Position numbers and translations under genes: made by a program
Part shown: piece after piece, positions 1 through 28,551 of the stretch
Position numbering within the stretch: position 1 is the stretch's first letter
Layout of the letters: every line of letters begins with the position of its first letter
Assembly (NCBI GenBank): GCA_947567595.1
Contig: CANOMQ010000001.1
Location: 77,613 to 141,612, forward strand
Direction of reading: 5' to 3'
Origin: an uncultured Lachnospiraceae bacterium
Lineage (GTDB): Bacteria; Bacillota; Clostridia; Lachnospirales; Lachnospiraceae
Length of the DNA stretch: 64,000 nucleotides
The notes under the pieces: generated by a model
Told to the model about the DNA's origin: nothing
Database searches by the model: none
Seen by the model: only the letters and a program-made list of their open reading frames with translations

Positions 1-1
1 T

Positions 2-5724: not shown

Positions 5725-5738
5725 TGTGAGGGCGATGT

Positions 5739-6461: not shown

Positions 6462-6471
6462 GGGAGAGCGT

Positions 6472-9432: not shown

Positions 9433-9459
9433 AGAGGAAGGATATTTGGAAAGGAACGA

Positions 9460-10914: not shown

Positions 10915-10924
10915 GAAGCGCTCT

Positions 10925-10963
10925 ATACGACCTTTTGGTTTAGCCAGAAGGTCGTATTTTTTT
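10925..10963 (+). terminator. Rho-independent terminator ending the 1.1-10.9 kb operon; overlaps the 3' end of the convergent gene
   Basis: Perfect 10-bp stem ATACGACCTT (10925-10934) / AAGGTCGTAT (10948-10957) with a 13-nt loop, then TTTTTTT. Confidence 0.7.
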
Positions 10964-12269: not shown

Positions 12270-12298
12270 TTGACTATTTTGTATTAAAATGATAAAAT
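12270..12298 (+). promoter_or_regulatory. SigA-type promoter for the signalling island
   Basis: TTGACT (12270-12275), 17-nt spacer, extended -10 TGaTAAAAT (TG 12290-12291, TAAAAT 12293-12298). Confidence 0.55.
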
Positions 12299-12357
12299 TA
12301 GAATACTTGTTAAGTAAACAAAAATAAGGAAGCAAATTTGTGTATCAGGGGGTAATG

Positions 12358-13443
12358 ATGGATAAACAGAAGATTTTAATTGTGGATGATGAAGAAGTAA
12401 ACAGAGCCATACTCGAAATCATGTTCCAAACGGAGTTTGAGGTCATTCAGGCGAGCAATGGTGAGGAGGCAATCAAGCAGATTGAGGAAAATCCGGACGC
12501 CGTATTAATCCTGTTGGACATCGTTATGCCGGTGATGGACGGATTTGGCGTTTTGGAATACATGCAGTCCAAGGAGCTGCTTGAGAAAATGCCGGTTATC
12601 CTGATTACGGGCGAGACAATCCGTGACAGCGAGGATAAGGCGTATTCATACGGCGTTGCGGACGTCATACATAAGCCGTTCTACCCCGATATTGTAGAGC
12701 GCAGGGCAAAGAACATCATCGAGCTGTATCAGAACAAGCACAACATGGAGGTTCGTTTAAAGGAGCAGGAGATGGAGCTGCGCGCGCAGCAGAAGCTTTT
12801 GCAGGAAAACAACGAGTTCATGATTGACACGCTCAGTACGGTTGTCGAGTTTCGAAGCCTTGAGACTGGGGAACATATCCGCCGTATCAAGTATTTTACA
12901 AGGATTTTGCTCAAATATCTTGACAAATATTTCCCGAAATACGGGCTGACAAAGGTGCAGATTGATGAGATTGCAAGGGCTTCCGCGCTGCATGATGTCG
13001 GAAAAATCGGTATCCCTGATGCAATTTTGTTAAAGCCGGGAAAGCTGACGCCCGAAGAATTTGAGGAGATGAAGAAGCATACGACAATCGGTGCGGAAAT
13101 TTTGGAAAGCTTCCGTGAAAGACAGTCAAATGAATTCTTTGAATATTGTTATGAAATCTGCCGTTGGCACCATGAGAGATGGGACGGAAACGGTTATCCC
13201 GATCATTTGGTCGGAGATCAGATTCCAATCAGTGCACAGATTGTAGCGATTGCAGATGTATACGATGCGTTGGTAAGCAAGAGAGTTTACAAGGGTGCAT
13301 ACGCCAATTCCGATGCATACAAGATGATTATGGACGGAGAGTGCGGACAGTTTTCTCCGGATGTACTGGAGTGCTTCCAGCTTGCAAAAGAGGACTTCTT
13401 CAATATTGTGGAAGTAATTGGAATGTTTGATTTTGCAGATTAG
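12358..13443 (+). CDS. Response regulator with HD-GYP output domain (predicted c-di-GMP phosphodiesterase, RpfG-like)
   Basis: REC domain: ILIVDDEE, LLDIVMPVMDG, IHKPF. HD-GYP domain: ETGEHIRRI, ALHDVGKIGIPD, HHERWDGNGYP, ADVYDAL. The start at 12358 is preferred because GGGGG lies 5 nt upstream. The ORF-track GTG is at 12340. Confidence 0.9.
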   Translation: MDKQKILIVDDEEVNRAILEIMFQTEFEVIQASNGEEAIKQIEENPDAVLILLDIVMPVMDGFGVLEYMQSKELLEKMPVILITGETIRDSEDKAYSYGVADVIHKPFYPDIVERRAKNIIELYQNKHNMEVRLKEQEMELRAQQKLLQENNEFMIDTLSTVVEFRSLETGEHIRRIKYFTRILLKYLDKYFPKYGLTKVQIDEIARASALHDVGKIGIPDAILLKPGKLTPEEFEEMKKHTTIGAEILESFRERQSNEFFEYCYEICRWHHERWDGNGYPDHLVGDQIPISAQIVAIADVYDALVSKRVYKGAYANSDAYKMIMDGECGQFSPDVLECFQLAKEDFFNIVEVIGMFDFAD

Positions 13444-13521
13444 ATTTAGAGGATGCGTAAAGGACAGCGAAACAGTATATGGTTTTGCTGTTTTTACGTA
13501 AACGGAAATTGGAGGCTGGAT

Positions 13522-14973
13522 ATGAGTCAAAGAGATTTAGCAGTCCTTCTTTTTGATAACGCTTTGGAGATTGTGCTGGCATTTGACGATCAGGGATTGA
13601 TTATCTACGGCAATGCCGCTGCGCATGAGAAGCTGGAATACGGCGAGGATTTGGTGGGTGTGCCGATTGGGAGTGTGTTTCCCAACGCGTTTGCAAAAGA
13701 TGGGGATAAATGGGTTCCGGCCTGTGCCATCGGGACGCAGATTCACCGCATGACGGCATACCGTAAAAATCAGACCTGTTTTCCGACGGATATGCGTGTC
13801 GTAAAGGAGGAGACGACAGGAACGTTTCTATGTATGGCGCACAGTGTGCTGGAAAAGGAGCATTTGAGCCATGAGCTGGATCAGATCAAGCAGGAGAACG
13901 AGGCGGCAATGCGCGTCAAGTCGGAGTTTGTGGCAAACGTGACGCATGAGCTTCGCACGCCCGTAAACGGGATTTTAGGTCATGTGCGGGAAATGCTGCC
14001 GGAGGAGACGGACAAAAAAAAGCTGCGTCAGTTGAATTTAATTGAGCACTGCTGCGTACAAATGAATAAGCTGATTAACAATATTTTGGATTTTTCCAAA
14101 TTGGAGGCAGGAAAGTTTGTTTTGGAGCCGCGGCGTTTTAAATTCCGTGACATGATTGATTATGTGGTGGCAAACCATAAGGGCAGGATTACGGAGAAGG
14201 GACTGGACTTTTTCGTGACCGTTTCGCCCGGCGTGCCGGAATATATTGTTGGTGACGAATTGCGGATTGTACAGATTTTAAATAATCTCCTGTCCAATGC
14301 GCAGAAGTTTACCAGTGTCGGGAAAATTACTTTGGAGGTCATCAAGACATCCAAAATGAAGGACTCGATTGAGCTGTTTTTTTTGGTGAACGACACGGGG
14401 ATTGGCATGGACGAAAAGGAGCAGGATAAGCTGTTTCAGAGCTTTTCGCAGGTGGACGCCTCAATTTCGCGCAAGTACGGCGGTACGGGACTCGGGCTTA
14501 GTATTTGTCGTCAGCTCGTGGAGCTGATGCACGGAAGCATTCATGCGGAGAGCGTAAAAGGCAGGGGTACGACGTTCACGTTTTCCGTATGGGTAGGAAG
14601 CGACCCAGAGGCTGTGGACACGGGAGCGGAGGAGGAAGGCATTGTCATGCCGGAGTCCATTGGTGCATTTTCGAACGCACTTGGCGAGGAGGACGAGGAG
14701 TCAGGCTATGCGTCGGCGCATAACCGCGAAACGCTGCTTCGCAATCTGTCAAAGCTGATTTTGTGTGTTGAGATGGAGAACTGGGAGAAGGCGGAAATGT
14801 TTATGGAGACCATCAGACAGCTTACGACGGGGGCGCCGCAGGAGGTTAGCCGTGCGGTATTGCGTCTGAAAATGGCAATTCAGAAGGAAAATTACGATAA
14901 GATTTCTACGGGAATTGAAACATTGAGAGGTTTAGTTGAGACACAGGGGGAATCAGGTATTGGAGAAGCATGA
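13522..14973 (+). CDS. Soluble PAS-domain sensor histidine kinase with a C-terminal helical extension
   Basis: H-box VTHELRTPVNGILG. N-box LLSNAQKFT. G-boxes VNDTGIGM and GGTGLGLSIC. No hydrophobic TM segment. The start at 13522 has a GGAGG RBS. The ORF-track start is 13453. Confidence 0.9.
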   Translation: MSQRDLAVLLFDNALEIVLAFDDQGLIIYGNAAAHEKLEYGEDLVGVPIGSVFPNAFAKDGDKWVPACAIGTQIHRMTAYRKNQTCFPTDMRVVKEETTGTFLCMAHSVLEKEHLSHELDQIKQENEAAMRVKSEFVANVTHELRTPVNGILGHVREMLPEETDKKKLRQLNLIEHCCVQMNKLINNILDFSKLEAGKFVLEPRRFKFRDMIDYVVANHKGRITEKGLDFFVTVSPGVPEYIVGDELRIVQILNNLLSNAQKFTSVGKITLEVIKTSKMKDSIELFFLVNDTGIGMDEKEQDKLFQSFSQVDASISRKYGGTGLGLSICRQLVELMHGSIHAESVKGRGTTFTFSVWVGSDPEAVDTGAEEEGIVMPESIGAFSNALGEEDEESGYASAHNRETLLRNLSKLILCVEMENWEKAEMFMETIRQLTTGAPQEVSRAVLRLKMAIQKENYDKISTGIETLRGLVETQGESGIGEA

Positions 14974-16033
14974 AAAAATCAGGAGAAAGGCACTTGTCCT
15001 GATTGTTGATGACGTTGAGATTAATCGGGAAATTCTAGGGGAAATCGTTGCCGACATGGGGTATAATACTGTGCTCGCAGAAAGCGGCGTGGCGGCACTG
15101 GAGCGCGTTAAGGAGCATTTGCCAAACTTAGTGTTGACCGATATATCCATGCCGGAGATGGATGGTTATGAGTTGTGCAGGCGGTTGAAGGCAGATGTGC
15201 GCACAAGGGATATTCCGATTATCTTTATTTCGGCATTTGACAAAACGACGGACATTGTAAAGGGATTTGAACTGGGCGGCGGCGATTATATTACAAAGCC
15301 GTTTATACCAGAGCTTGTGAAGGCGCGCGTCAATGTACACTTAAAGCTCTACGAAGCGACAAGGGAGGTTACGGAAGCAAACAGACATTTGCAGATTTCC
15401 GTAAACGAGCAGGTGAAGCAGCTTGAGCAGGAGCGGCGCGGTGTACTTTATGCGCTTGCGGGCGTTGCGCGGAAAAATTCGCAGTATGGGGAAAAGTACA
15501 TCGAACGAATGCGCCACAACTGCCATATCCTTGCGCAGAGTATGCAGCTCTCCCCGCTTTTTTCCGATATGATTTCGGATAATTTCGTTGATACCGTACA
15601 GCTTGCGGCACCGCTTTGCGACATCGGAAATATCGGGATTCCAAAGGATATTCTGCAAAAGAAGGCGAAGCTTACGGACGAGGAGTGGGGGATTATGTGT
15701 AGTCACACCAAGATCGGTACAAAGCTTTTGCGCGATTTGAAGGTGACAAACGACTACAACGATTTCATGCAGATTTCAATGGATATCACACATTACCATC
15801 ATGAAAACTGGGATGGAAGCGGTTATCCGGAAGGCATGAAAGGGAATGAAATCCCGCTTGCGGCGCAGATTGTCGCAATGTCAAGCATGTTCTGTGCGCT
15901 GACGGAGGACAGGAGCTTCCGCCAAAGCTATGACAGGGACGAGGCGTTGGAGATTATGCGGCAAGAGGCGCAGCAAAAGTTTAATCCTGATATTTTTAAT
16001 ATATTCTGTAAGGTTGCAAGACAGCTTCGATAA
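14936..16033 (+). CDS. Response regulator with a degenerate HD-GYP domain (several metal-ligand positions substituted)
   Basis: REC domain is intact (LIVDDVE, LVLTDISMPEMDG, ITKPF). The output domain keeps HHENWDGSGYP. It has GEKYIER where the paralog has GEHIRR, LCDIGNIGIP where the paralog has LHDVGKIGIP, and SSMFCAL where the paralog has ADVYDAL. TTG start at 14936 or 14960; it overlaps the HK stop. Confidence 0.85.
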   Translation: MRHRGNQVLEKHEKIRRKALVLIVDDVEINREILGEIVADMGYNTVLAESGVAALERVKEHLPNLVLTDISMPEMDGYELCRRLKADVRTRDIPIIFISAFDKTTDIVKGFELGGGDYITKPFIPELVKARVNVHLKLYEATREVTEANRHLQISVNEQVKQLEQERRGVLYALAGVARKNSQYGEKYIERMRHNCHILAQSMQLSPLFSDMISDNFVDTVQLAAPLCDIGNIGIPKDILQKKAKLTDEEWGIMCSHTKIGTKLLRDLKVTNDYNDFMQISMDITHYHHENWDGSGYPEGMKGNEIPLAAQIVAMSSMFCALTEDRSFRQSYDRDEALEIMRQEAQQKFNPDIFNIFCKVARQLR

Positions 16034-16035
16034 AT

Positions 16036-16065
16036 TAACAATTTTTTACTGGCAAAAAATTGTTA
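16036..16065. repeat. Perfect 12-bp inverted repeat in the gap between the degenerate HD-GYP gene and cheR
   Basis: TAACAATTTTTT (16036-16047), loop ACTGGC, AAAAAATTGTTA (16054-16065). No U-tract follows. Confidence 0.6.
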
Positions 16066-16115
16066 TGAAAGGCGTGCCTTAGACCGATAAGTTATATGAC
16101 GGAGGACGAAAAACG

Positions 16116-16925
16116 ATGATAACGGATGAAGAGTTTTTAAGAATTGCCGCGTATATGAAAAACCATTACGGAATTGATTTGGGACAAAAAAAGGTCATTA
16201 TGAATGGCAGACTTGAAAATCGCATAAGGACGGGCGGCTGGGGAACTTTTAACAATTTCATGGATGCAATGGAGAAGGATAAATCCGGCGCGCTGGAAAA
16301 GGAACTGGTCAATCAGCTTACCACCAATTATACCTATTTTATGCGGGAGTTTGAGCATTTTGAGTTCTTGAAACGGGAGGTGCTTCCGTGGGCGAAAAAG
16401 AAAGCACTAAAAACTAAAGACCTGCGGGTTTGGTGCGGCGCCGCCTCGACAGGGGAAGAACCATATATGATTGCGATGGTAATCCGGGATTTTTTTGGAT
16501 TGGAACATACCTCATGGGATACAAAGGTATTAGCGACAGACGTGTCCACAAAGGCGTTGCAACAGGCGCTTGCGGGAACCTATGAGGAGGAGGCGCTCAA
16601 GGATATGCCTGACCAGTGGAAGCGGCATTTTTTTCAAAAGCCGGTCATGGGCAGGTATACAGTGACGGACGAACTTAAGCAGGAGGTGCTGTTTCGACAG
16701 TTTAACCTGATGTCGCCGTTTCCGTTTAAGAAAAAAATGCATACTGTTTTTTTGCGCAATGTTATGATATACTTTGATAGTAAGACAAAACAGGAATTGC
16801 TCCAAAAGGTTTATGACTGCTTGGAGCCGGGAGGCTACCTATTTATCGGAATGACGGAGACGCTTGACAGAACAAGGACGCCTTTTCAGATTATACAACC
16901 CTCCATTTTCAGAAAAAGAGAGTAA
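16116..16925 (+). CDS. cheR: Chemotaxis protein methyltransferase CheR
   Basis: N-terminal helical CheR_N region (FLRIAAYMKNHYGIDL). SAM-binding core RVWCGAASTGEEPY. FLRNVMIYFD. 269 aa. Confidence 0.92.
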   Translation: MITDEEFLRIAAYMKNHYGIDLGQKKVIMNGRLENRIRTGGWGTFNNFMDAMEKDKSGALEKELVNQLTTNYTYFMREFEHFEFLKREVLPWAKKKALKTKDLRVWCGAASTGEEPYMIAMVIRDFFGLEHTSWDTKVLATDVSTKALQQALAGTYEEEALKDMPDQWKRHFFQKPVMGRYTVTDELKQEVLFRQFNLMSPFPFKKKMHTVFLRNVMIYFDSKTKQELLQKVYDCLEPGGYLFIGMTETLDRTRTPFQIIQPSIFRKRE

Positions 16926-16941
16926 ATAAAATAGGAAGGAT

Positions 16942-17982
16942 GTGATTGACATGCGGCCTATCAGGGTGTTAATTGTAGAAGATTCCCTTGTGTTTCGGGA
17001 ATTGTTGGTACAGAATTTAAATAAAGATCCGGCAATTGAGGTTGTGGCGACAGCAAAAGATCCGTTTGAGGCGCGGGATGCCATTTTGGAATACCGGCCA
17101 GACGTTATGACATTGGATGTGGAGCTGCCGCGCATGAACGGCATTGAGTTTCTGCAAAAGCTCATGCCGCAGTACCCGCTTCCTGTTGTGGTCATCAGCG
17201 CTTTAAGCGACAAGGTGTTTGATGCGTTAAACGCGGGCGCTGTTGATTTTGTGGCAAAGCCTGCCGTTACAGGGCGCGCGCAGCTTGAGGATTTTATCCA
17301 AAATGAGCTGCTTGTGAAGATTAAGATTGCATCAACTGCAAAAATCAGTCAGATTAAGCAGAAAGCAATTGCACAGGAGCACCACGGAGGATTTTCGGGA
17401 AAAGGAAAAGAGCTGATTGTGGCAATCGGAGCGTCCACAGGCGGTACGGAAGCGATTTTTTCGGTAGTAAAGGATTTTAACGTGGATATTCCCGGTGTGA
17501 TTATTGTACAGCATATGCCACCGGGGTTTACAAAGATGTATGCGCAGCGACTGGATAACCAGTGCCGCGTGCAGGTGAAGGAAGCGGAGACGGGAGACCG
17601 TGTGCTTCCGGGGCATGTGCTGATTGCGCCGGGGGGCGACAGGCATATGCATTTGGTGAAGGTGAACGGCATTTATCAGGTAGAAGTGAAGCCGGGACCT
17701 AGGGTAAACGGACATTGTCCGTCGGTGGATGTATTGTTTGATTCCGTGGCAAAGGTGGCGGGGCCGAGTGCGCTTGGCATTATTCTGACCGGAATGGGCG
17801 GAGACGGCGCGAAGGGGCTGCTTGCCATGCGCAAGGCGGGAGCAAGGACAATCGGGCAGGACGAATCGACCTGCGTAGTGTATGGAATGCCTAAAGTTGC
17901 TTATGATATCGGGGCAGTGGAGTTTCAGGATAAGCTGCAGGATATTGCAAAGAGGACTTATGCGGTATTAAATAAAATGTAA
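16942..17982 (+). CDS. cheB: Protein-glutamate methylesterase/deamidase CheB (REC + methylesterase)
   Basis: REC domain: VLIVEDS, VMTLDVELPRMNG, FVAKP. Esterase domain: IGASTGGTEA, VQHMPPGFT, LTGMGGDGA. Confidence 0.92.
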   Translation: MIDMRPIRVLIVEDSLVFRELLVQNLNKDPAIEVVATAKDPFEARDAILEYRPDVMTLDVELPRMNGIEFLQKLMPQYPLPVVVISALSDKVFDALNAGAVDFVAKPAVTGRAQLEDFIQNELLVKIKIASTAKISQIKQKAIAQEHHGGFSGKGKELIVAIGASTGGTEAIFSVVKDFNVDIPGVIIVQHMPPGFTKMYAQRLDNQCRVQVKEAETGDRVLPGHVLIAPGGDRHMHLVKVNGIYQVEVKPGPRVNGHCPSVDVLFDSVAKVAGPSALGIILTGMGGDGAKGLLAMRKAGARTIGQDESTCVVYGMPKVAYDIGAVEFQDKLQDIAKRTYAVLNKM

Positions 17983-17994
17983 AGGAGAGGAAAA

Positions 17995-18387
17995 ATGAGG
18001 ATTTTACTTGCAGAGGATGATTTCGCAACAAGAAAATTCATGATCAGCTTTCTGTCGAAATACGGGGAATGTGATGTTACCGTAGACGGAATGGAGGCGG
18101 TAGACGCGTTTATGATGGCGCTCGAAGATGATGAGCCTTATGACCTTGTGTGCCTTGACATTATGATGCCGGTTATGGACGGTTATCAGGCGCTTATGGG
18201 AATCAGGAACTTGGAGAAGGAACGCAACATTCCGCAGGAAGAAGGGGTTAAGGTCATCATGACTACCGCGCTCAATGATGAGCAGAATGTAAAGATGGCG
18301 TTTGAACTGGGATGTACGATTTATTCCGGCAAACCGATTGACAAGGCAAGATTTGAACAGGCGATGAAAAAGCTGGGACTGATTTAG
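17995..18387 (+). CDS. cheY: Single-domain response regulator, CheY-like
   Basis: 130 aa. ILLAEDD, LVCLDIMMPVMDG, IMTTA, SGKPID. Positioned between cheB and cheA. Confidence 0.85.
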   Translation: MRILLAEDDFATRKFMISFLSKYGECDVTVDGMEAVDAFMMALEDDEPYDLVCLDIMMPVMDGYQALMGIRNLEKERNIPQEEGVKVIMTTALNDEQNVKMAFELGCTIYSGKPIDKARFEQAMKKLGLI

Positions 18388-18420
18388 TCAGGTATTAAAA
18401 TATGTAGGAAAGGAGAACAT

Positions 18421-20571
18421 ATGGCTGAAGAATTTAACACAGAGGGAATGCTGGACATATATCTCTTTGAGAATCAACAGCTTTTAGAGCAGTTGCAGGA
18501 AATGGTCTTGGAGCAGAAGGATGCGGACTGTTTTGATGAGGACAGCATCAATGAAATTTTTAGGACCATGCATACCATCAAAGGGTCTTCAGGTATTATG
18601 ATGTTTGACAATATCACGGCGATTTCACATAAGCTGGAAGATGTCTTTTATTACCTGAGAGAGTCTCATCCCGACAACGTGCCACATGTTAAGCTTGTGG
18701 AGCACGTTTTGGAGGTTGAGGATTTTATCAGCGGTGAGCTGGAGAAAATCAGCAACGGAGAAACAGCAGACGGCGATCCAAAGAGTATCATCAAGGAATT
18801 AGATGCGTTTTTGGATATGCTGAAAAACGGCGCTGCGGAGGGGGCGGAGCCACCCGCCGAGAATGTGCATGAAGAACCGAAGCAGTTTTACATTGCGCCG
18901 GTTGCAACGGACGCAAGTCGGTTTTACAAGGTTTATGTAACCTTTTCACCGGATACCGGAATGGCAAATATCCGTGCGTACAAAATCGTGTATGCGATGA
19001 AGGAGATTGCGGAGGATTTACTGTATTATCCCGAGGATATTATTTCCGATGAGAGCAGTGCGGAAGTGATTATGAAGGAGGGTTTTAAGATCCTGCTTCA
19101 GGCGCAGTGTTCCGAGGAGGAAATCAGGAAGATTATTGGTATCGGATATGATATTCAGGCAGTTGATATTTATGAATGTAAGGCAAATGAGTTCCTACAG
19201 GGATTTTCTGATCCGGAACCCGGCCAACAGGTCATTGACTTAGAGTCAAGCGTGGAGGCGATTGAGGCGAAGGCGGAACAGGCGAAGGAGGGGGAACAGG
19301 AGAAGAAGCCTGCGAAACCGCAGATTGCACCGGGTGATTTTGTCATTAAGTCCAAAGAACCCGGAAAGCAGAAGAAGCTTGCGAAGGATAAGCCCAAAAA
19401 TGAGAAGGCTGCCTTTATCAGCGTCAATGTCCAAAAGATGGATCAGTTGATGGATTTAATCGGCGAGCTGGTGATTTCCGAGTCTGTGGTGCTGCAAAAT
19501 CCCGATTTGAAGGTTCCGGGATTAAACCTTGCGAACTTCAACAAGGCAGCCCAGCAGATGGCAAAAATTTCCACGGATTTGCAGAATGTCATTATGTCCA
19601 TGCGAATGGTGCCGCTTACGACGCTGTTCCAAAAGATGAACCGTATTGTGTTCGACGTGTCAAGAAAGCTAGGCAAGGACATCGAATTTGAGATGATTGG
19701 CGAGCACACGGAGGTTGATAAGAATATCAGTGAAAACATTTCCGATCCTTTGATGCATATGGTGCGTAACGCGGTGGATCATGGTATTGAGACCAACGAG
19801 GAGCGCAAGGAGAGTGGAAAGAAGGAAAAAGGAAAAGTTACGCTTTCGGCAAGGACAGAGGCCGGAAAGGTGTGGATTAGCGTAACGGACAACGGAAGAG
19901 GCCTGGAGCGCCACAAAATTCTTGCAAAGGCGAGAAAACAGGGGCTTTTGGATCCTGATAAACCGGATAGCTCTTACACAGATAAGGAAGTGTTTCAGTT
20001 TATTACCCTGCCCGGATTTTCTACCAATGAAACGGTAACGGAATATTCCGGCAGAGGCGTGGGAATGGACGTTGTGGTACAGAATATTCAGGCAATCGGC
20101 GGCTCTTTGGAGATTGACAGTATTGCCGGAATGGGCTCTACGATGTCGCTGAAAATCCCGCTCACGCTTGCGATTATTGACGGTATCGTGCTGGAAACAG
20201 GCACTTCTTCGTTTGTGGTGGAGACTGGTGTCATCAAGGAGTTTGTAAATGTAAAAGAGGATATGATGATTCATGAGCCAAACGGCGAAGAATACATCAT
20301 GATCCGTGGAGAGTGCTACCCCGTACTCCGTTTGGGAGAATGGTATGGATTAAAAGAATACCGCAAGTCAGTAGAAGAGGGGACAATGCTGATTTTTGAA
20401 GTGGAAGGCAAGACGATATGTCTCTTTGTGGACAGACTGGTAGGCAAGCAGGAAATCGTTGTAAAGCCGATTCCTTCTTATGTGAAGAAGGTGAAGGGCA
20501 TATCAGGGTGTACACAGCTTGGAGACGGCAGCATTGCATTAATACTGGATCCGGTAGGACTAATCGAATAA
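18421..20571 (+). CDS. cheA: Chemotaxis histidine kinase CheA
   Basis: P1/Hpt motif FRTMHTIKGSSG. Lys/Glu-rich linker. P3/P4 motifs (DPLMHMVRNAVDHGIE, DNGRGL, GRGVGMDVV). C-terminal CheW-like P5 domain. No fused REC domain. Confidence 0.93.
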   Translation: MAEEFNTEGMLDIYLFENQQLLEQLQEMVLEQKDADCFDEDSINEIFRTMHTIKGSSGIMMFDNITAISHKLEDVFYYLRESHPDNVPHVKLVEHVLEVEDFISGELEKISNGETADGDPKSIIKELDAFLDMLKNGAAEGAEPPAENVHEEPKQFYIAPVATDASRFYKVYVTFSPDTGMANIRAYKIVYAMKEIAEDLLYYPEDIISDESSAEVIMKEGFKILLQAQCSEEEIRKIIGIGYDIQAVDIYECKANEFLQGFSDPEPGQQVIDLESSVEAIEAKAEQAKEGEQEKKPAKPQIAPGDFVIKSKEPGKQKKLAKDKPKNEKAAFISVNVQKMDQLMDLIGELVISESVVLQNPDLKVPGLNLANFNKAAQQMAKISTDLQNVIMSMRMVPLTTLFQKMNRIVFDVSRKLGKDIEFEMIGEHTEVDKNISENISDPLMHMVRNAVDHGIETNEERKESGKKEKGKVTLSARTEAGKVWISVTDNGRGLERHKILAKARKQGLLDPDKPDSSYTDKEVFQFITLPGFSTNETVTEYSGRGVGMDVVVQNIQAIGGSLEIDSIAGMGSTMSLKIPLTLAIIDGIVLETGTSSFVVETGVIKEFVNVKEDMMIHEPNGEEYIMIRGECYPVLRLGEWYGLKEYRKSVEEGTMLIFEVEGKTICLFVDRLVGKQEIVVKPIPSYVKKVKGISGCTQLGDGSIALILDPVGLIE

Positions 20572-20629
20572 ATGTTACCGGAGTACAGTGAACGGTAACG
20601 AATAAATGGAGTGAAAGGAAGGTAGTCAT

Positions 20630-21184
20630 ATGGATGAAATCATGGAACAGAAGAGGCGCGCAGAGGATCTGAATGTGTCTGATGAACATGATGCACAAAA
20701 AGGAAAGTACATGACGTTTAAATCCGGAAATGAGTACTTCGGACTGAAAATCCAATATGTCAATGAGATTATCGGATTTCAGGCGATTACGGCGATTCCG
20801 GAAACAGAGGATTACATTAAAGGCTTGATAAACCTCAGAGGAAAGATTATCCCTGTTATTGACGTTCGGCTTCGCTTTCGGCAGCCACCCTTTGATTATA
20901 ATGACAGAACTTGTATTATTGTGATTGATGTCAAATCGACAGTAGTTGGCCTCATTGTGGAAAAGATTGCGGAAGTGGTGGAAATCAGGGAAGAGAATAT
21001 TTTGCCGCCGCCGAGTATCGGACGCGCAGACAAGGTACAGAACAAGTATGTGTACGGTATCGGAAAAGTGGGCGATTCGGTCAAGCTTTTGCTTGATCCG
21101 GATAAGCTTTTGAATGACGAAGATATGTCGGTCATTGAACAGGCGGGCGAAATGAATAATGTAGAAGATGTCGAAGAGAAGTGA
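20630..21184 (+). CDS. cheW: Chemotaxis coupling protein CheW
   Basis: [22 protein letters not shown]...[17 protein letters not shown]...[11 protein letters not shown] is the classic CheW-fold signature. It carries an acidic C-terminal tail. Confidence 0.9.
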
Positions 21185-21200
21185 AAGGAGATTAACAAAA

Positions 21201-22670
21201 ATGAAAAACTTAAAGATAAGAACAAAGTTAATATTGGGATTCAGTGTTCCTGTTATACTCATGATTCTCACGGTGGTGATAAACATTTTCATAACAAATG
21301 AGATTATCGATAACGTTGCAGAGATGAACGAACAGGCTGTAGTGACAATAACAGAGGAACTACATAAGACAGCCGGTGTAGATGATCAGGAGCTTGCTCA
21401 TTTGACGGCGATGATTTCTGAGGGAAAGGATGACAGAATTGAGCGCATGCGCAATGGTATCCAGATTTCTGATTATATCAGCGTTGCTCTGCTGCTTATT
21501 TCCGTAATTTGTACCGTGGGTATTTCTTTAAGCCTGATTAAGGTGATCATGAAATCAATAAGGCAGTTGTCAGGAGCAGCAAAAGAGATTGCACAGGGGC
21601 ATGTTGACATTGAAATGGAAAAATACAACAATGACGAGTTCGGCGATTTGGTTGACGAGTATACTAAGGTGATTGACAACATTAAATATCAGGCACGTGT
21701 GGCAGAGGAGGTTTCCAACGGAAATCTTACAGTGGATGTAAAGCCCAGTTCTTCAGGAGATCTTCTTGGTAACTCTTTGAAGAAGCTTGTGGATGACAAC
21801 CGCAATACACTTGGCAACATCAGCGATGCAGGTCATCAGGTTACCATTGGCGCTTCACAGGTGGCAAGCGCAAGCCAGTCTTTGGCACAGGGTACGACAG
21901 AGCAGGCAAGCGCAATTGAGGAGATTACGGCTTCGATTGATGAGATTGCAGATAAGACAAAGCAGAATGCAAATCAGGCAAATTCTGCGGCTGATTTGGT
22001 TAAGAGGGCAATTGATGATGTAAAGCAGGGTAATGAGCAGATGCAGGATATGATGTCTGCGATGGACGACATCAACAAGGCTTCTGAGAGCATTTCCAAG
22101 ATTATTAAGACGATTGACGATATTGCGTTCCAGACAAATATTCTTGCCCTGAACGCGGCGGTTGAGGCTGCAAGGGCAGGTGAGGCAGGCAAAGGCTTTG
22201 CAGTTGTAGCGGAAGAGGTAAGAAGTCTTGCGGCAAAGAGTGCGGCGGCAGCTTCTGAGACGGCAGAATTGATTGAGGACTCTATCAACAAGGTAAGTCA
22301 GGGTTCTAAGATTGCGGACGAGACAGCAAAGGCTCTGGGCGTAATTACAGAAGCGGTTCAGCAAAGTGAAGTGCTGATCAACAGCATTGCACAGACTTCG
22401 AACTATCAGGCAACGGCGGTTGCACAGATTGAGCAGGCGATAACACAGGTTTCACAGGTTGTGCAGACCAATTCGGCAACCAGTGAGCAGTGTGCTGCTG
22501 CAAGCGAGGAGCTTTCTAATCAGGCATCGAGAATGCGCGATATGCTTTCGATTTACAATCTTGGCAGTCAGCATGTCTCTTCACCGGCAGGCTCCGCGAA
22601 TTATTCTTCGTCTGTTTCAAATGCAAACGAGCAGATTATTTCGCTTGGGGACGGATTTGGAAAATATTAA
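21201..22670 (+). CDS. Methyl-accepting chemotaxis protein (2 TM, very small ectodomain, HAMP, MA domain)
   Basis: The hairpin tip is conserved: [42 protein letters not shown]1 is at the N-terminus and TM2 follows about 70 aa later, then HAMP. The start at 21201 has AAAGGAG upstream. The ORF-track start is 21168. Confidence 0.92.
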
Positions 22671-22686
22671 AAAGATGGATTTGGAA

Positions 22687-22722
22687 ACAGCCGTGTGAGG
22701 TGTCTGCACGGCTGTTTTTTTT
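22687..22722 (+). terminator. Rho-independent terminator after the MCP gene
   Basis: Perfect 9-bp stem ACAGCCGTG (22687-22695) / CACGGCTGT (22707-22715) with an 11-nt loop, then TTTTTTT. Confidence 0.8.
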
Positions 22723-22757
22723 GTGTTTTTTCAATGCTTTTATGTTGGATTGACTTC

Positions 22758-22786
22758 TTGTGCTAAAAGATAAGATATGGTATACT
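22758..22786 (+). promoter_or_regulatory. Candidate promoter for the hybrid-kinase genes
   Basis: TTGTGC (22758-22763), 17-nt spacer, extended -10 TGgTATACT (TATACT 22781-22786). The -35 is weak. Confidence 0.35.
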
Positions 22787-22817
22787 GGAAATACTTAGTG
22801 TTAATAAGTGTAGTTAG

Positions 22818-24899
22818 ATGGGAGAAGATACGGATATGCAGGAAACAGCAGATTATGTACAGGAAATTATTGATGTGCTGGGGGATATGAACTTTGCAAT
22901 TTATGAGGTCAGTCTGCAAAGCGGGGAAGTTACGGTTGTGCGTGCGACGGAGCGGATTGTAAAGGGGACAAAAGGGCGCGGTTTTATGTGGGAAGATTTG
23001 TTCCGGCGTGGGATTGGCTATATTGTCTTGGAATATCGGGATGCGTTTCGGGAAAAATTCTCGTTAGAGGCAATGCGTAAAGCAAAGGAGAATGGAGAAA
23101 AAAAGAAAACGTATGTTTGCCAAGCGCTGCTTCAGGGAGCATGGCGTTATATCGCTGTGACGGCGTTTTTTAAGGAGAGTAAGACGCGGGGACCATATGC
23201 GGTCGTGACCTTTCAGGATATTGACGAGCAGACGAAAAACGATATGGAGCATATTCAGCAGGATAGACGCATGGAGTCTATTATCAGCAGCCTAAGCAGT
23301 ATGTTTTTTGCGGCGTACTATGTTGATTTTCAGAAGGATACGTTTCGTGCGGTGACACAGAAGGAAGCGGTGGGAAATATTTTGGGGGACGAGCGCAGCT
23401 ATACACAGGGTATTCGTTTGTATGCTGAGCATTTTATTTGTCCGGAAGACCGTGAAGAGTATCTGCGGTGCCTTAATAAACAGTATTTGATGGAGACGCT
23501 CAGCGGAGAGCATTCGCTAGTGGCAACAGAGTATCGGACGCTGCCAGATGAGCGGAATAAGCGAGAGTGGATTCGCGCATCCGTCGTGCTTGCGGAGACT
23601 GCGCCGGACGGGACGCCGCGCGGGGCAGTGTATGTGGCGCAGGATATTACGGAGAGCAGGCTTCGGGAGGAGCAGGAGCAGCAGGCGTTGCGTGAGGCAT
23701 GTGAGGCGGCAAACCATGCCAACGAGGCAAAAAGTGAATTTATGTCGCGCATGAGTCATGATATTCGGACACCGATGAACGCGATTATCGGCATGACGGA
23801 GATTGCGGGCCGGTATTTGGATGATCGTGAGCGTGTGATGGACTGTTTGGAGAAGATTACGGTTTCAAGTAAGCATTTGTTGTCATTGATTAATGAAGTG
23901 CTTGACATGAGTAAGATTGAATCGGGGAAGATTGAGCTTTCGGAGGAGGAGGTATCCCTTCCTGAGCTGATTGATAATCTTGAGACGATTATTCGGCCCT
24001 CTGTGCAGAAAAACAATCATACGCTCCATGTGGAAGTGGCGGATATGAAGCATCCCTGCGTGATTGGCGATCCGGTCAGACTGCAGCAGGTTTTTATGAA
24101 TATATTAGGAAATTCCGTAAAATATACGCCGCCGGGCGGAAGGCTATCGGTGGAGGTTTGGGAAAATCCGTCAAAGGTACGGGGATATGGTTCGTATGCG
24201 TTTGTCTTTACCGATAACGGTATCGGCATGAGCAAGGAGTTTTTGGAGAAACTGTTTGAGCCGTTTAGCCGCGAGGAGGATTCGCGCGTAAGCAAGATTG
24301 AGGGTACCGGTCTTGGCATGGCGATAGCAAGAAATATTGCCCGGAAAATGAACGGGGATATTCTCGTGGAGAGTACGGAGGGCAAGGGTTCGCGTTTTAC
24401 GGTTGAGTTATCATTGAAAATTGCCAACGTGTCAAAGCAGGAGGCACAGACGCCTGCGAAATTGGTACAAAGCGAAACGCAGACACTTAGCAAGGAGCTT
24501 TTGGCGAGCAAGCGGTTGTTACTGGTGGAGGACAATGAGCTCAATAGGGAGATTGCCATAGAGATTATTTCACAGACGGGTGTGTGCGTGGAGAGCGCGG
24601 AGAACGGCAAGGAGGCGCTTGAGCGGTTTGAGAGAATGCCTGAAAATTATTATGATATGATTTTTATGGATATCCAAATGCCTGTGATGAACGGGTATGA
24701 GGCGACGGAGTCAATTCGTAGTTTTTCGCGCGCGGATGCCGAAAAAATCCCGATTATTGCCATGACGGCAAATGCCTTTATGGAGGACATCCGCAGAAGC
24801 AGGGAGGCGGGAATGAACGAACATTTGACGAAGCCGCTTGATGTGGGAGAATTGATGAAATGTTTGGAGAAGTGGCTGGGAGGAACGAAAAATAATTAG
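22818..24899 (+). CDS. Soluble hybrid sensor histidine kinase / response regulator
   Basis: H-box [16 protein letters not shown]-box [11 protein letters not shown]-boxes DNGIGM and GTGLGMAI. C-terminal REC ([27 protein letters not shown]). N-terminal sensory region of about 290 aa with no TM segment. Alternative start at 22836. Confidence 0.9.
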
Positions 24900-24914
24900 G
24901 GGAGGCGATATGCC

Positions 24915-27005
24915 GTGAACCAAATGAATTATAAAGAAGAGGCGCTGTTGCAGTTAGATGAAAAGACGGTGCCGATTGTTGAGAGCATTTCGGAGCGGAT
25001 GCCGGGCGGCTTTTTTATCTATCATGCGGACGGTGACGAGGAACTTATTTTTACAAACAATGCGCTGTTGCGCATTTTCGGGTGTGAGACGTTGGAAGAA
25101 TTTAAGGCGCTGACGGGATATACGTTTCGCGGAATGGTTCATCCCGAGGATCTTGAAATGGTTGAAAAAAGTATTGTCAATCAGATTGCGAGCAGCCGTT
25201 ATGATTTGGACTACGTGGAATACCGGATTATTAAGAAGGACGGGAGTGTCCGTTGGGTGGAGGATTACGGGCATTTTGTACATACACAGTTGTACGGCGA
25301 TATTTTTTATGTGTTTATCGACGATGCAACGGAGCGGATGAAGAAGCGGGTACAGCACCTTGAGTCGATTAATATTGAGCTGGGAGAGGTTTATGCGCGC
25401 GAGCTTCAGTACCGCAAGGCGATTTTACATGATGCGCTTTTGTTTTTTGAGGTTAATCTGACGCACAACGAAATGATTACGAAGACGCTTTTGAATATGG
25501 AGAGCGGACAGGGGGACGAACTGTATGGATTGTCTGAGGAAGAGCAGGTAAAGTCGTATTCCGATTATGTGAAGGATAAAGAGGCGTGCGTTGGTTTGGA
25601 TGGGCTTGACGGATATCGTCAGTTTTTCGACGCGAAGCGTTTGATTGTGTGCTGCGAACAAGGTGAGATTGAGCAGACGCATGACGTTTGGATGTTTGAT
25701 GCGTTTGGAAGAAAGCAGTTGTGTCACTATGTGTTTTTGCTTGGTAAAAATGAGAACACGGGTGATGTCGTGGCGCTTGCCGTTGCAAAGGACATTACGG
25801 AGCAAATGGAGCGGCAGAAGCTTTTACAGTCGGCGCTTCGACAAGCACAGGCGGCAAATATCGCAAGGGATACCTTTCTTGTCAATATGTCGCATGATAT
25901 TCGCACGCCGTTAAACGCGATTATTGGTTACACGGAGCTTTTGCGAAGCCGTAGGGATGATCCGGAGAAGGTGGACACGTATTTGGGCAAAATCCGTGCT
26001 TCCAGTGAGCAGCTATTATCAATTTTAAACGAAACGCTTGAGGTGACGAGGACAGAGTCGGGCAGGGTAAATCTGATTGAAAGTGAATGTGATTTGGCAG
26101 AACTGTTTGCGGAGGTAGAAAAGTCAGCGCTTCCGATGATGAAGACAAAGTCGATTCGTTTTCATATTGACAGTTCAAACGTAACACATTTTGCAGTGAT
26201 TGCAGACTTTATCCGTATCAAGGAAATTTTAATGCAATTGCTTGACAACTCGGCGAAGTATATGAATTCCAATGGTACGATTTCGTTGACAGTTGTGGAA
26301 ACGGAGATTGACATGAAGGGGTATAAGAAATACCGTTTTACTGTCGAAGATAACGGCATCGGTATTTCAGAGGAATTTAAAGAGCAATTGTTTGATCCGT
26401 TTAAGCGGGAAAGCAACACGACACATAGTGGTGTACTTGGAATTGGATTGGGGCTTACAGTTGTCAAGAACTTTGTCGAGATGATGGAGGGCGACATTGC
26501 GGTGGAAAGCAGACTTGGACATGGCAGCCGGTTTACGGTCAGCCTGCTCTTGAAGCTTCAGGAGGAGTCAGGCAAACAGGAGCTGCATACTGCTGACACT
26601 GCCAAGCTTGTGCAAAAGTCAAAGAACAGACGTTTACTTGTCGTGGAGGATAACGAGATTAACTGCGAAATTGTGGAGGAGCTGTTAAAGGATAAGGGCT
26701 ATTTGGTTGAGACGGCGGCAAACGGCAGGATTGCGCTGGAGATGGTGGCAGGTTCTGCGGACGGGTATTTTGCGGCGATTTTGATGGACATTCAGATGCC
26801 TGAGATGGACGGGTATGAGGCGACAAGAGCCATCCGTAAGTTGGAAAATCCAGCGTTATCGCAAATTCCGATTATTGCGCTTTCAGCGAACGCGTTTGCA
26901 GAGGATTATCAAAAGTCCATTGATGCTGGAATGGTGGCGCATTTTCCAAAGCCAATCAATATTGATGCGCTGCATGATTTAATTTGCCATACTTTGGACG
27001 GCTGA
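24915..27005 (+). CDS. Soluble PAS-containing hybrid sensor histidine kinase / response regulator
   Basis: PAS-like region: PGGFFIYHADGDEELIFTNNALLRIFG...YRIIKKDGSVRWVEDYG. H-box [16 protein letters not shown]-boxes DNGIGI and GIGLGLTV. REC: LLVVEDNEIN, ILMDIQMPEMDG, FPKPI. GTG start with a GGAGG RBS. Confidence 0.9.
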   Translation: MNQMNYKEEALLQLDEKTVPIVESISERMPGGFFIYHADGDEELIFTNNALLRIFGCETLEEFKALTGYTFRGMVHPEDLEMVEKSIVNQIASSRYDLDYVEYRIIKKDGSVRWVEDYGHFVHTQLYGDIFYVFIDDATERMKKRVQHLESINIELGEVYARELQYRKAILHDALLFFEVNLTHNEMITKTLLNMESGQGDELYGLSEEEQVKSYSDYVKDKEACVGLDGLDGYRQFFDAKRLIVCCEQGEIEQTHDVWMFDAFGRKQLCHYVFLLGKNENTGDVVALAVAKDITEQMERQKLLQSALRQAQAANIARDTFLVNMSHDIRTPLNAIIGYTELLRSRRDDPEKVDTYLGKIRASSEQLLSILNETLEVTRTESGRVNLIESECDLAELFAEVEKSALPMMKTKSIRFHIDSSNVTHFAVIADFIRIKEILMQLLDNSAKYMNSNGTISLTVVETEIDMKGYKKYRFTVEDNGIGISEEFKEQLFDPFKRESNTTHSGVLGIGLGLTVVKNFVEMMEGDIAVESRLGHGSRFTVSLLLKLQEESGKQELHTADTAKLVQKSKNRRLLVVEDNEINCEIVEELLKDKGYLVETAANGRIALEMVAGSADGYFAAILMDIQMPEMDGYEATRAIRKLENPALSQIPIIALSANAFAEDYQKSIDAGMVAHFPKPINIDALHDLICHTLDG

Positions 27006-27084
27006 TGCTTGTATTTTGTGCGGATTGGCAGTATGATAAATACGGATATGCATGAGATTACAATGCGAGGAGGGAAAGGACAAG

Positions 27085-27966
27085 ATGAACAGTGTGCAGT
27101 GGAACGACCGGTTTAATATCGGTGTGGAGATTGTGGACAAGGCACATCAGCGACTCTTTTCGATTGTCAGCAAGATGATTGCGCTCAATGAGGATGAAAG
27201 CAAGCGCGCACATGCCTGTCGGGAAACGATTAAGTATTTTAAGAACTATACGGTGAAGCACTTTTCGGAGGAAGAGGCGTATATGCGCTCCATCGGCTAT
27301 GAAAAGTACGAAATACATAAGGCTTTGCATGACGATTTACGGGATAAGACCATTCCTGCACTGGAGATGGAGCTTGAGGAACAGTGTTATTCGGAGGAAG
27401 CGGTACAACACTTCCTTGGAATTTGTCTTGGGTGGCTGAGCGGGCATATTATGATGACGGACCGTGCGATTACGGGACGGATTAGCGACCGATGGTATAT
27501 TAATCCCAAGCAGGAGGAGCTGATGGCGCTGGAGGACGCGATTGAACGTGTCGTAAAGGAAATGCTTGGCATTACGCCGCGTCTTGTGAGCGGGCATTAT
27601 GGCGGTGAGGATTTTGGAAAAGCGATTTTTATCCGTCTTTCGTACCGTGATGAGCAGGGTGCCCGCGTACGGGTGTATATGGCGTTTGAGGAGCGGATGG
27701 TGCTGCAGACGTTTGGCGAACTGCTTGGGAAGAAGCTTGTGCGTGTGGATAAGACGGTGGTTTTTGCGGTCAATCAGCTTGTACAGATGATGGTAAAGCG
27801 TATGCATTTTAACTTTCAGCATTTGGGCGCATTTCAGCTTGAGAAGGAAAACGTGCTAAGCTATGAACTGCTTGTCAAGGAGTTCGATAAGGTGCCGCTT
27901 TGTTACAGTCTGTTGTATGACGGGGAAGGAAAGGGATATTTTGTGTTTGCAGCGGCAAAAGTGTAG
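27085..27966 (+). CDS. Hemerythrin-like (HHE cation-binding) domain protein with a CheX/CheC-like C-terminal domain
   Basis: The N-terminus WNDRFNIGVEIVDKAHQRLF ... HFSEEEAYM ... HKALHDDL matches bacteriohemerythrin patterns. The C-terminal region of about 150 aa (AIERVVKEMLGITP...VRVYMAFEERMVLQTFGELLG...AVNQLVQMM) resembles CheX as I recall it. The start at 27085 has a GGAGGG RBS. Confidence 0.65.
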   Translation: MNSVQWNDRFNIGVEIVDKAHQRLFSIVSKMIALNEDESKRAHACRETIKYFKNYTVKHFSEEEAYMRSIGYEKYEIHKALHDDLRDKTIPALEMELEEQCYSEEAVQHFLGICLGWLSGHIMMTDRAITGRISDRWYINPKQEELMALEDAIERVVKEMLGITPRLVSGHYGGEDFGKAIFIRLSYRDEQGARVRVYMAFEERMVLQTFGELLGKKLVRVDKTVVFAVNQLVQMMVKRMHFNFQHLGAFQLEKENVLSYELLVKEFDKVPLCYSLLYDGEGKGYFVFAAAKV

Positions 27967-28008
27967 GCAGTTATATTGTGTTAATATTTTGATAATTGCC
28001 TTGTACGC

Positions 28009-28037
28009 TTGCAATACGGGAATGCTTTCGATATAAT
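28009..28037 (+). promoter_or_regulatory. SigA-type promoter for the stand-alone Hpt gene
   Basis: TTGCAA (28009-28014), 17-nt spacer, TATAAT (28032-28037). Confidence 0.55.
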
Positions 28038-28117
28038 AGTAATATACGGGAATTTTTGGCAATTTTTTAAGAAGGGAATATTGCCGCAAGCGTTGCGTAT
28101 ATGGAAAGGAAAAGACA

Positions 28118-28489
28118 ATGAGCGAGCTTTTAAAACAGAAATTAAAGGAAAACGGAGCGGATGTGGAAGGGACGCTGCACCGCTTTATGAACAATGACGC
28201 GTTGTTTTTAAAATTTATCCGGAAATTTAAGGATGATCAGAATTACGCGATTTTAAAGAAGCATTTGGATGAGAAGAATTATGAAGAGGCGTTTAAGGCG
28301 GCGCATACGCTTAAGGGCGTGAGTGCAAATTTGGGGCTGAATCCGATTTTCGACCGTGCGTCTGCGGTGACGGAACTTCTTCGGGGCAAGGAGCCTTCAG
28401 AGGTGGATGTCGCAAAGGTGGAGGAAGAGAAGAATGCGCTTGAGGAGGCGTATAAGCGATTCCTTCAGATTATCGAGGAAAATGCATAA
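28118..28489 (+). CDS. Stand-alone histidine phosphotransfer (Hpt) protein
   Basis: 123 aa, all-helical. AHTLKGVSANLGL contains the HxxKG phospho-His motif. It has its own promoter and terminator. Confidence 0.85.
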   Translation: MSELLKQKLKENGADVEGTLHRFMNNDALFLKFIRKFKDDQNYAILKKHLDEKNYEEAFKAAHTLKGVSANLGLNPIFDRASAVTELLRGKEPSEVDVAKVEEEKNALEEAYKRFLQIIEENA

Positions 28490-28518
28490 TGCCCATGATT
28501 GTGAACAAATAGAAAAAA

Positions 28519-28551
28519 GGTGCCATGCGTCTTTTGCATAGCGCCTTTTTT
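28519..28551 (+). terminator. Rho-independent terminator after the Hpt gene
   Basis: Stem GGTGCCATGC (28519-28528) / GCATAGCGCC (28536-28545): 10 positions with one G-U wobble and one mismatch. 7-nt loop, then TTTTTT. An A-run lies upstream. Confidence 0.65.

Follow-up and report, generated by a model that had tools for sequence, protein, structure and literature searches.

Chemosensory pathways fall into classes in which the length of the receptor and the accompanying enzymes go together. Receptors of 36 heptads (36H) pair with class F7 and those of 44 heptads (44H) with class F1; receptors of 40 heptads (40H), together with a CheA fused to a receiver domain (CheA-REC) and a CheR fused to TPR repeats (CheR-TPR), mark the alternative cellular functions (ACF) class that includes Wsp (PMC9321776, PMC6943060). 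In Pseudomonas aeruginosa, PA2572, which has a receiver (REC) domain and a variant HD-GYP domain (REC-YN-GYP) devoid of phosphodiesterase activity, is encoded between the kinase PA2571 and the orphan methyl-accepting chemotaxis protein (MCP) PA2573, and its REC domain binds the cytoplasmic part of that receptor (PMC3411652). Here we describe an operon in a 64,000-nucleotide stretch of DNA from an uncultured Lachnospiraceae bacterium (GenBank assembly GCA_947567595.1, contig CANOMQ010000001.1, positions 77,613 to 141,612; this whole stretch is called the window below), in which a set of che genes is joined to REC-HD-GYP regulators and a histidine kinase. By literature search the module seems to be a previously undescribed arrangement of known chemosensory parts, full-text searching having given no description of it. 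The reading that we prefer, and that we hold with about even confidence, is that the module is the chemotaxis core of these bacteria, probably serving flagellar chemotaxis, with a hard-wired two-component branch acting on cyclic di-GMP (c-di-GMP).

An operon joining che genes to HD-GYP regulators

The genes of the window were taken from a six-frame listing of open reading frames (ORFs) together with Pfam scans, and 10 kb on each side were added, so that the inspected stretch came to 84 kb; ORF-based negative Pfam results apply to ORFs of at least 200 aa plus public gene calls covering most of the window. CheA relatives were collected from species-representative genomes (432 stretches) and the best 80 of the 432, with CheA 78-96% identical and up to 10 kb of flank each, were kept for synteny counts; these loci bear L-numbers. 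The window proteins were searched against the 80 loci and all flank ORFs were clustered, and in the counts of gene linkage 67 stands for the relatives with at least 2.8 kb of upstream sequence. The window CheA has an exact copy on mouse-gut assemblies, and its nearest relatives are from uncultured Lachnospiraceae, Lachnospiraceae bacterium COE1 (93% CheA identity) and Acetatifactor.

Thirteen signalling genes lie between 12.3 and 28.5 kb, all on the plus strand and all where a preliminary description of this DNA, made from the letters alone, had placed them. This island is made of two units, a conserved operon of 10.4 kb and a clade-specific tail of 5.8 kb. A sigma-70-like promoter candidate (TTGACT-17-TAAAAT with a TG extension, 12270-12298, plus strand; 10/12 matches in a consensus scan) sits ahead of the operon, in a 234-bp gap beside a divergent acyltransferase gene. 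An intrinsic-terminator-like hairpin, the strongest in the scan, is found at 22683-22719 (plus strand); its 15-bp stem has six GC pairs, and a run of T comes after it. The conserved operon is therefore placed at about 12.3-22.7 kb. Its order is a REC-HD-GYP gene (HDGYP1), a soluble kinase (HK1), a REC-variant HD-GYP gene (HDGYP2), cheR, cheB, a 130-aa REC, cheA, cheW and an MCP gene; after the terminator come two hybrid kinases, a hemerythrin-CheX protein and a histidine phosphotransfer (Hpt) protein.

The preliminary description had tied a Che pathway to HD-GYP response regulators, and at the level of genes this tie is real and strong: HK1 and HDGYP2 stand directly upstream of cheR in 67/67 informative loci, the eight core genes from HK1 to the MCP gene keep one order in 64 of 65 loci, and the association persists where CheA is only 63-66% identical. 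The distant lineages in question (L096-L098) were reached through P0244, one of two representatives with the CD..C signature described below, which is 42% identical to the window HDGYP2. Their HK1 is 40-45% identical and the arrangement is kept, tightly packed, as kinase, variant “CD-GYP” regulator, CheR, CheB, 130-aa REC, CheA, CheW and MCP, with the canonical HD-GYP absent; the CD-GYP genes lie at 3124-4188 in L096 and at 10001-11062 in L098. Among the flanking genes, no cluster occurs in more than 12 loci, and the 118 recurrent clusters span 173 Pfam families.

HDGYP1 (12340-13443; Pfam REC, HD_5 and HD) carries a canonical HD-GYP domain and is a predicted c-di-GMP phosphodiesterase. Among solved structures it is nearest to PA4781 (4r8z) and PmGH (4mcw), and in alignment to these two the full metal-binding set (H, HD, H, HH, D) is present together with GYP; none of the 59 orthologues departs from the H, HD, H, HHExxDGxGYP and DxxD motifs. 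A 3'3'-cGAMP phosphodiesterase (5z7c) is also among the solved relatives. The gene is missing in some lineages (L018, L024, L074, L085 and L096-L098).

HDGYP2 (14936-16033; Pfam REC and HD_5), whose gene overlaps the end of HK1, had been taken for a second REC-HD-GYP protein. The REC domain, the HD_5 match and the GYP motif bear this out, but the HD-GYP is not canonical. The histidine of the HD dyad is a cysteine in 66/66 orthologues (HD to CD), the position of PmGH D308 is also a cysteine in 65/66, and the positions of PmGH H189 and D305 vary; these PmGH residues are what we take to be metal ligands from the published structure. The GYP motif is intact (HHENWDGSGYP), with H, H, E, G, G, Y and P invariant in 66/66. 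In a wider set the cysteine pair reads CD..C in 117/120 relatives and SD..C in the other 3/120, and the CD..C signature is rare, being found in 2 of the best 150 REC-HD-GYP representatives (50% clustering), where neighbouring families have YN in place of HD. These motif states suggest that HDGYP2 has probably lost normal catalysis. Since the distant lineages keep the CD-GYP operon without a canonical HD-GYP, it is with the variant HDGYP2, and not with the canonical enzyme HDGYP1, that the che genes are constantly partnered.

The closest precedent is the PA2571-PA2573 group, to which HDGYP2 is likened by gene layout and motif description rather than by sequence alignment. In both, a kinase, a REC-variant HD-GYP protein and an MCP are encoded together (in one operon in the window type, 67/67 loci), and in both GYP is kept and HD lost. 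The differences are that the window type has CD and a second conserved cysteine where PA2572 has YN, that a full CheA/W/R/B set lies between its regulator and its receptor, and that it usually comes with an Hpt protein and a canonical paralogue of the HD-GYP regulator.

HK1 (13453-14973; public gene calls start it at 13522) is a soluble histidine kinase with HisKA and HATPase domains and an H-box that is invariant in 67/67. It had been described as a PAS kinase; the kinase assignment stands, and the PAS domain is seen only as a weak match (PAS_8, E=0.004). Transmembrane segments were looked for in HK1 and in both hybrid kinases and none was found. The kinase core is closest to the hybrid kinases BarA, TorS and LuxQ. 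Its C-terminal helical domain (residues about 420-500) has a conserved motif, LRLKMA[IV]QKENY, and no Pfam match; that this domain is a true Hpt was considered and rejected, as the similarity is weak (E=0.004) and the histidine is not conserved.

The adjacency of HK1 to its response regulator, and the overlap of the two genes, are typical of a self-sufficient two-component pair. It could be, then, that two independent systems share one transcript, an HK1/HD-GYP switch being co-expressed with an ordinary chemotaxis set and exchanging no signals with it. Neither HD-GYP protein has a domain known to bind Che proteins, and co-expression alone would be sensible if c-di-GMP is to be low while chemotaxis proteins are made. 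However, the linkage lasts from 96% down to 63% CheA identity while all other neighbours change, the constant partner is the probably non-catalytic variant, which argues for a role through protein-protein contact, and it is a variant HD-GYP regulator that contacts an MCP in the PA2572/PA2573 pair. We consider two separate systems unlikely.

The Che proteins and the class of the pathway

The receptor gene (21168-22670; public start 21201) encodes the only protein of the window with an MCPsignal domain, so that the earlier count of exactly one MCP holds. It has two transmembrane segments, a short loop, HAMP, MCPsignal and a weak 4HB match; the stretch between the two hydrophobic segments is about 50 aa, shorter than the ectodomain of about 70 aa first proposed. 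The signalling domain aligns to E. coli Tsr without a gap over 224-290 residues (176 bits; residues 243-466 on Tsr 2-225), whereas its alignment to the 44H receptor TM1143 of Thermotoga is gapped and scores 82 bits, and on this ground the receptor is placed in the 36-heptad class. Its C-terminus is a flexible linker ending in D-x-F-G-K-Y (pentapeptide xFGKY), which is present in 72/73 orthologues and also in L096 and L098. In E. coli-type receptors an aromatic C-terminal pentapeptide tethers CheR and CheB; the motif seen here differs from the enteric NWETF.

The remaining Che proteins are unfused. CheR (16116-16925, 269 aa) matches Pfam CheR_N and CheR only, with no TPR domain found by Pfam, and its PDB relatives (P. 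aeruginosa CheR1, Salmonella CheR and B. subtilis CheR) are uninformative as to class. CheB (16942-17982) is a methylesterase with REC (NCBIfam CheB, 382 bits, over the cut-off). CheA (18421-20571) has P1 (Hpt), P2, dimerisation, HATPase and CheW-like domains by Pfam and lacks a fused REC; it scores 316 bits against E. coli CheA and 281 bits against T. maritima CheA. The difference is larger for CheW (20630-21184; Pfam), with 116 bits against E. coli CheW and 44 bits against T. maritima CheW.

These features were compared with those of the published classes (PMC9321776, table S1; PMC6943060). Judged by the receptor alignment and the E. coli and T. maritima bit scores, and not by class-specific MiST profile hidden Markov models, the pathway is of E. 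coli type and F7-like. It shares with the F7 system of E. coli and Salmonella the gap-free 36H receptor, the aromatic pentapeptide on a flexible linker, a CheW and (slightly) a CheA nearer to E. coli than to Thermotoga, and CheR, CheB, CheA (P1-P5) and CheW as separate proteins. The gene order agrees with the F7 order Y-A-W...R...B in one part and departs from it in another, Y-A-W being kept and R and B standing before it instead of after. The pathway differs from F7 in its full order (R-B-Y-A-W-MCP), in having no CheZ, in a receiver that is not CheY-like by sequence, in the two REC-HD-GYP genes and the kinase that head the operon, and in its Firmicute host. The marks of F1 were not found, the receptor not being 44H, and CheC and CheD being absent from the module, from the window and from the modules of the 80 relatives; likewise, as had been noted, the window contains by Pfam no cheC, cheD, cheV or flagellar family.

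The likeness to Wsp and Dif drawn in the preliminary description goes no further than the encoding of a chemosensory set with a c-di-GMP response regulator and the idea of a second-messenger output. CheA-REC, CheR-TPR and a 40H receptor are all absent, the receptor being 36H and the CheW like that of E. coli; furthermore, the regulator here is an HD-GYP protein, suited to degradation or degenerate, rather than a GGDEF protein, and a separate kinase is present as phosphodonor.

The flanks of the relatives contain seven further MCPs with the same signalling-domain length and no pentapeptide, some of them large and, by eye, of dCache type. Together with the pentapeptide receptor of the operon these show signs, at the level of sequence, of a mixed, multi-input array.

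In the position of CheY lies a single-domain REC of 130 aa (17995-18387; Pfam REC). No other protein of the module is as conserved: the identity of this REC is 84-98% across the 80 species, and still 82-88% where CheA is only 63-66% identical. Its homologues form 4012 clusters, of which the best 120 are all at least 86% identical. The evidence from this receiver appears two-sided: such constraint suits docking on a conserved machine, and the type of sequence suits relay to an Hpt protein.

The second of these possibilities belongs to the main rival of our reading, in which the module is a dedicated non-motility pathway with c-di-GMP as its output, signals passing from one dedicated pentapeptide receptor to CheA and from there, either directly or through the receiver and Hpt, to the REC-HD-GYP proteins. 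Such a pathway would match Wsp on the phosphodiesterase side, or else resemble the F7 systems that stress induces in Vibrio and Pseudomonas. Several observations speak for it: the HD-GYP and che genes are never apart (67/67 loci), the receiver is nearer to SLN1-type phosphorelay receivers than to CheY, an Hpt gene adjoins the module in most loci, and CheC, CheD, CheV and CheZ are absent from the operon. In addition, no SigD-like promoter was found upstream of the module and, apart from a MotA/MotB-like pair in four loci, no flagellar neighbours among the most frequent families of the flank clusters, and in V. cholerae the output of F7 is not chemotaxis. Against this, the several receptors of 36H length with large sensor domains near the module fit a multi-input taxis array better, and HK1, lying between the two HD-GYP genes and overlapping the second, is the obvious cognate donor, which leaves CheA unneeded. 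The high identity of the receiver (82-88% where CheA has 63-66%) suits docking on a conserved, motor switch-like machine, and the marks of the ACF class are lacking. We regard a dedicated c-di-GMP pathway as a serious but rather improbable alternative.

The downstream tail and the glycan surroundings

The tail opens with two cytoplasmic hybrid histidine kinases. The first (22818-24899; Pfam) has an uncharacterised N-terminal region followed by HisKA, HATPase and REC, and its orthologues, 74-80% identical, occur only in L007, L009 and L010; the second (24915-27005; Pfam), with PAS_3, HisKA, HATPase and REC, has orthologues in the same three loci only. Among the 80 relatives, it is only in these three that both hybrid kinases and the hemerythrin protein lie downstream of the MCP. 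There, a gene for a PMT_2 (GT-C) glycosyltransferase of 526-540 aa stands between the hybrid kinase genes (16729-18315 in L009), so that the clade tail and glycan genes are interleaved in the nearest relatives; in the window it is missing, and 16 bp separate the two kinase genes.

The next gene (27052-27966) encodes a hemerythrin domain, recognised by Pfam, by NCBIfam and by the PDB structure of DcrH, fused to a further domain. The suggestion that this second part is CheX-like is borne out as a fold, although it is invisible to Pfam, CheX giving no match even at E<=5. In an AlphaFold2 model (pLDDT 85, built on 47 homologues) the C-terminal half was compared with the PDB by Foldseek and matched 3iic, 6vpw, 1squ, 1xko and 3hzh (E 3e-7 to 2e-5, probability 1.00, TM 0.67-0.74 on the target); in the model, then, this half has the CheX/CheC fold. 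The protein thus resembles the CheX/CheC phosphatases in its C-terminal fold and DcrH in its N-terminal bacteriohemerythrin, and differs from them in that the two are fused in one protein, in the lack of a Pfam CheX match and in that the D/S-x3-E-x2-N motif is not evident. For the full phosphatase motif (D/S-x3-E-x2-N-x22-P), no E-x2-N lies among the invariant columns of 47 sequences, as judged by alignment only and not by residue-level superposition; the conserved acidic residues are E213, E214 and D233. The family forms 592 clusters (90% identity) in Lachnospiraceae, with proteins of about 293 aa (293-304) that stand alone outside the module; the two such contexts looked at were both unrelated housekeeping neighbourhoods. 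Serine recombinase genes (Resolvase plus Recombinase) were seen in three flank clusters near the module (L093 7908-9611, and others) and beside one hemerythrin-CheX gene, which hints that some module neighbourhoods have been shaped by mobile elements.

The last gene (28118-28489; Pfam Hpt) encodes a stand-alone Hpt protein with the motif HTLKG. An Hpt gene adjoins the module in 48 loci including the window, mostly directly upstream of HDGYP1, and is present in 40 of the 50 loci with HDGYP1 and in 0 of 4 without it. These four form two pairs (L018/L024 and L074/L085), each sharing flank genes, and for that reason probably represent only about two independent losses. The combination of hybrid kinases, Hpt and a REC-HD-GYP protein with all catalytic motifs encoded together recalls RpfC/RpfG; unlike in that system, the Hpt is here a separate protein, the kinases are cytoplasmic, rpf/DSF genes are not present and the branch is optional across lineages.

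An array that controls c-di-GMP directly can also be envisaged, with phosphate passing from CheA to the receiver, to Hpt and to the canonical HD-GYP protein, and the CD-GYP protein attached to the array as a new kind of sensor that reads c-di-GMP or redox state by means of two invariant cysteines. We think this scheme improbable, much as we do the sharing of a transcript by two separate systems; if it were true, chemoeffector gradients would set second-messenger levels in hundreds of commensal species.

The island is embedded in glycan genes. As stated earlier, an AT3 acyltransferase gene (10940-12106, minus strand) and a PMT_2 (GT-C) gene starting at 28591, or at 28657 by the public gene calls, border it. 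Upstream lie genes for DUF6044 and a B12/radical-SAM enzyme besides the divergent AT3 acyltransferase; downstream, PMT_2 (GT-C), GT11, GT2 and MBOAT genes are followed by about 25 more, to 63 kb and beyond. In the 10 kb beyond the window, giant Big_2 surface proteins are found upstream and further glycan genes downstream. The glycan region (window 1-12106 and 28591-64000; seen also in L088 and L091) extends over more than 55 kb and is a mosaic, with a GC fraction of 0.36-0.51 per 2 kb. Its UbiA prenyltransferase, HAD phosphatase and GT-C enzyme suggest that polyprenyl-phosphate sugar donors are used, and it also encodes DUF6044, DUF6020, B12/radical-SAM, two GT-D, GDPD and sulfatase-family proteins. 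It is preceded by surface proteins, one of 2153 aa and one of at least 1437 aa, and on the upstream side of the module the gene content differs even among the four closest relatives. An island for flagellin glycosylation was considered and rejected, flagellin and flagellar genes being absent from the 84 kb inspected.

In the preliminary description the island was supposed to sense a surface or redox cue and, by c-di-GMP turnover, to control the surrounding glycan genes. In this clade the module does have glycan genes on both sides, and the GT-C gene between the hybrid kinases in L007, L009 and L010 is the sole observation that favours a local link. AT3 genes are next to the module in two settings that are not related to each other (the window clade and ten loci of the Acetatifactor group), and MBOAT/AlgX or DUF6020 genes lie a few kb away in L096-L098. 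However, synteny with glycan genes fails in the relatives, an outcome that the preliminary description had itself named as refuting its model. Homologues of the glycan genes of the window lie beside the module in no loci other than L007, L009, L010 and L011 (4/80), in each of which CheA is at least 87% identical; a few genes of glycan type (DegT/FdtA/GT2) are present in three more loci, and the others have none of them and unrelated, variable neighbours. Nor is any glycosyltransferase family among the 25 most frequent of the 173 flank Pfam families. No Rfam family, the c-di-GMP riboswitch included, reached its gathering score in the window or in L088, L091, L009, L013 and L066, and Pfam found no PilZ, GIL or MshEN domain in the ORFs and gene calls of the glycan region, in which seven proteins have no Pfam match at all. 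The island also lacks a DNA-binding regulator. The kinases are cytoplasmic, which leaves surface sensing unsupported; what may plausibly be sensed, given the soluble PAS kinases and the hemerythrin domain, is an intracellular or redox cue. That the operon lies within a glycan locus is accidental and peculiar to one small clade, and control of the surrounding glycan genes by the island is very improbable.

Other neighbours were noted in single groups of loci. A divergent PocR-GGDEF-HD-GYP gene lies just upstream of the module in L055 (1705-3309, minus strand), L061, L066 (Acetatifactor muris), L071 and L084, a second c-di-GMP enzyme beside the che operon in these five loci. In L048, L057, L070 and L072, a MotA/ExbB-like protein (376 aa) and a MotB-plug/OmpA-like protein (297 aa) are encoded after a double-REC hybrid kinase, about 5-7 kb downstream of the MCP; the pair may be a flagellar stator or another proton-channel system. 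L062 has a tandem second cheA-cheW-mcp, in the order HK1, HD-GYP, cheR, cheB, cheA, cheW, mcp, REC, cheA, cheW, mcp, which could be either a real duplication or an artefact of metagenome assembly.

Proposed role of the module

The preferred reading, a chemotaxis core with a c-di-GMP branch, is based on the 67/67 linkage, the 36H receptor, the E. coli-like CheW, the signs of several receptors, the boundaries of the operon, the motif states of the two HD-GYP proteins, the PA2572 precedent and the joint occurrence of Hpt and HDGYP1. It draws also on the PocR-GGDEF-HD-GYP and MotA/MotB-like genes near the module in some lineages, and on the confinement of glycan flanks to the nearest relatives. 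From these we infer a set of phosphotransfer routes, a phosphodiesterase activity and a link to the flagellum. The MCP of the operon would recruit CheR and CheB through its pentapeptide, and other 36H receptors encoded elsewhere would join the same array. CheA would phosphorylate the 130-aa receiver and CheB. HK1 would phosphorylate HDGYP2, which, with three of eight metal ligands lost or changed, would probably serve the receptor array as an adaptor or sensor without catalysis, as in the case of PA2572 and PA2573. In most lineages an optional branch would lead from hybrid kinases by way of the stand-alone Hpt to the canonical REC-HD-GYP protein, which would lower c-di-GMP and so favour swimming. 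The hemerythrin-CheX protein may tune the phosphorylation of the receiver to oxygen or iron.

Several points weigh against this reading. The view is limited to the 84 kb around the operon and to the flanks of its relatives, and within it the 25 Pfam families seen most often in the 118 recurrent flank clusters include no flagellar one. A SigD-type promoter (TAAA-N14-16-CCGATA) was found neither in the window nor, for 66 loci, ahead of the module; the consensus is that of B. subtilis, which may not be that of Lachnospiraceae. The 130-aa receiver is far from canonical CheY: its best PDB matches are SLN1-type receivers, and against the E. coli CheY model PRK10610 it scores 31 bits, where the cut-off is 189. 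The flank MCPs are a small sample, possibly biased by their nearness to the module, and the phosphotransfer steps of the model are predictions. Finally, in V. cholerae only F6 drives chemotaxis and the output of F7 is unknown, and F7 systems outside the enterics can be non-chemotactic (PMC9321776, PMC6943060).

The embedding of the operon in a hypervariable glycan region is weak evidence for its function, and caution is called for in reading such surroundings. Two of the proteins are of biochemical interest in themselves. One is the HD-GYP variant, in whose metal-site motifs two cysteines are invariant; the other is the hemerythrin-CheX fusion, through which the dephosphorylation of a receiver could respond to oxygen or iron in strict anaerobes. 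Among gut commensals the flagellated Lachnospiraceae are abundant, and their flagellins are major immune targets, so the control of swimming bears on host-microbe biology. The present analysis defines a unit of eight to ten genes in which, across many species, HD-GYP regulators are bound up with a chemosensory core of E. coli type, and with it a concrete handle on the coupling of chemotaxis and c-di-GMP in Firmicutes.

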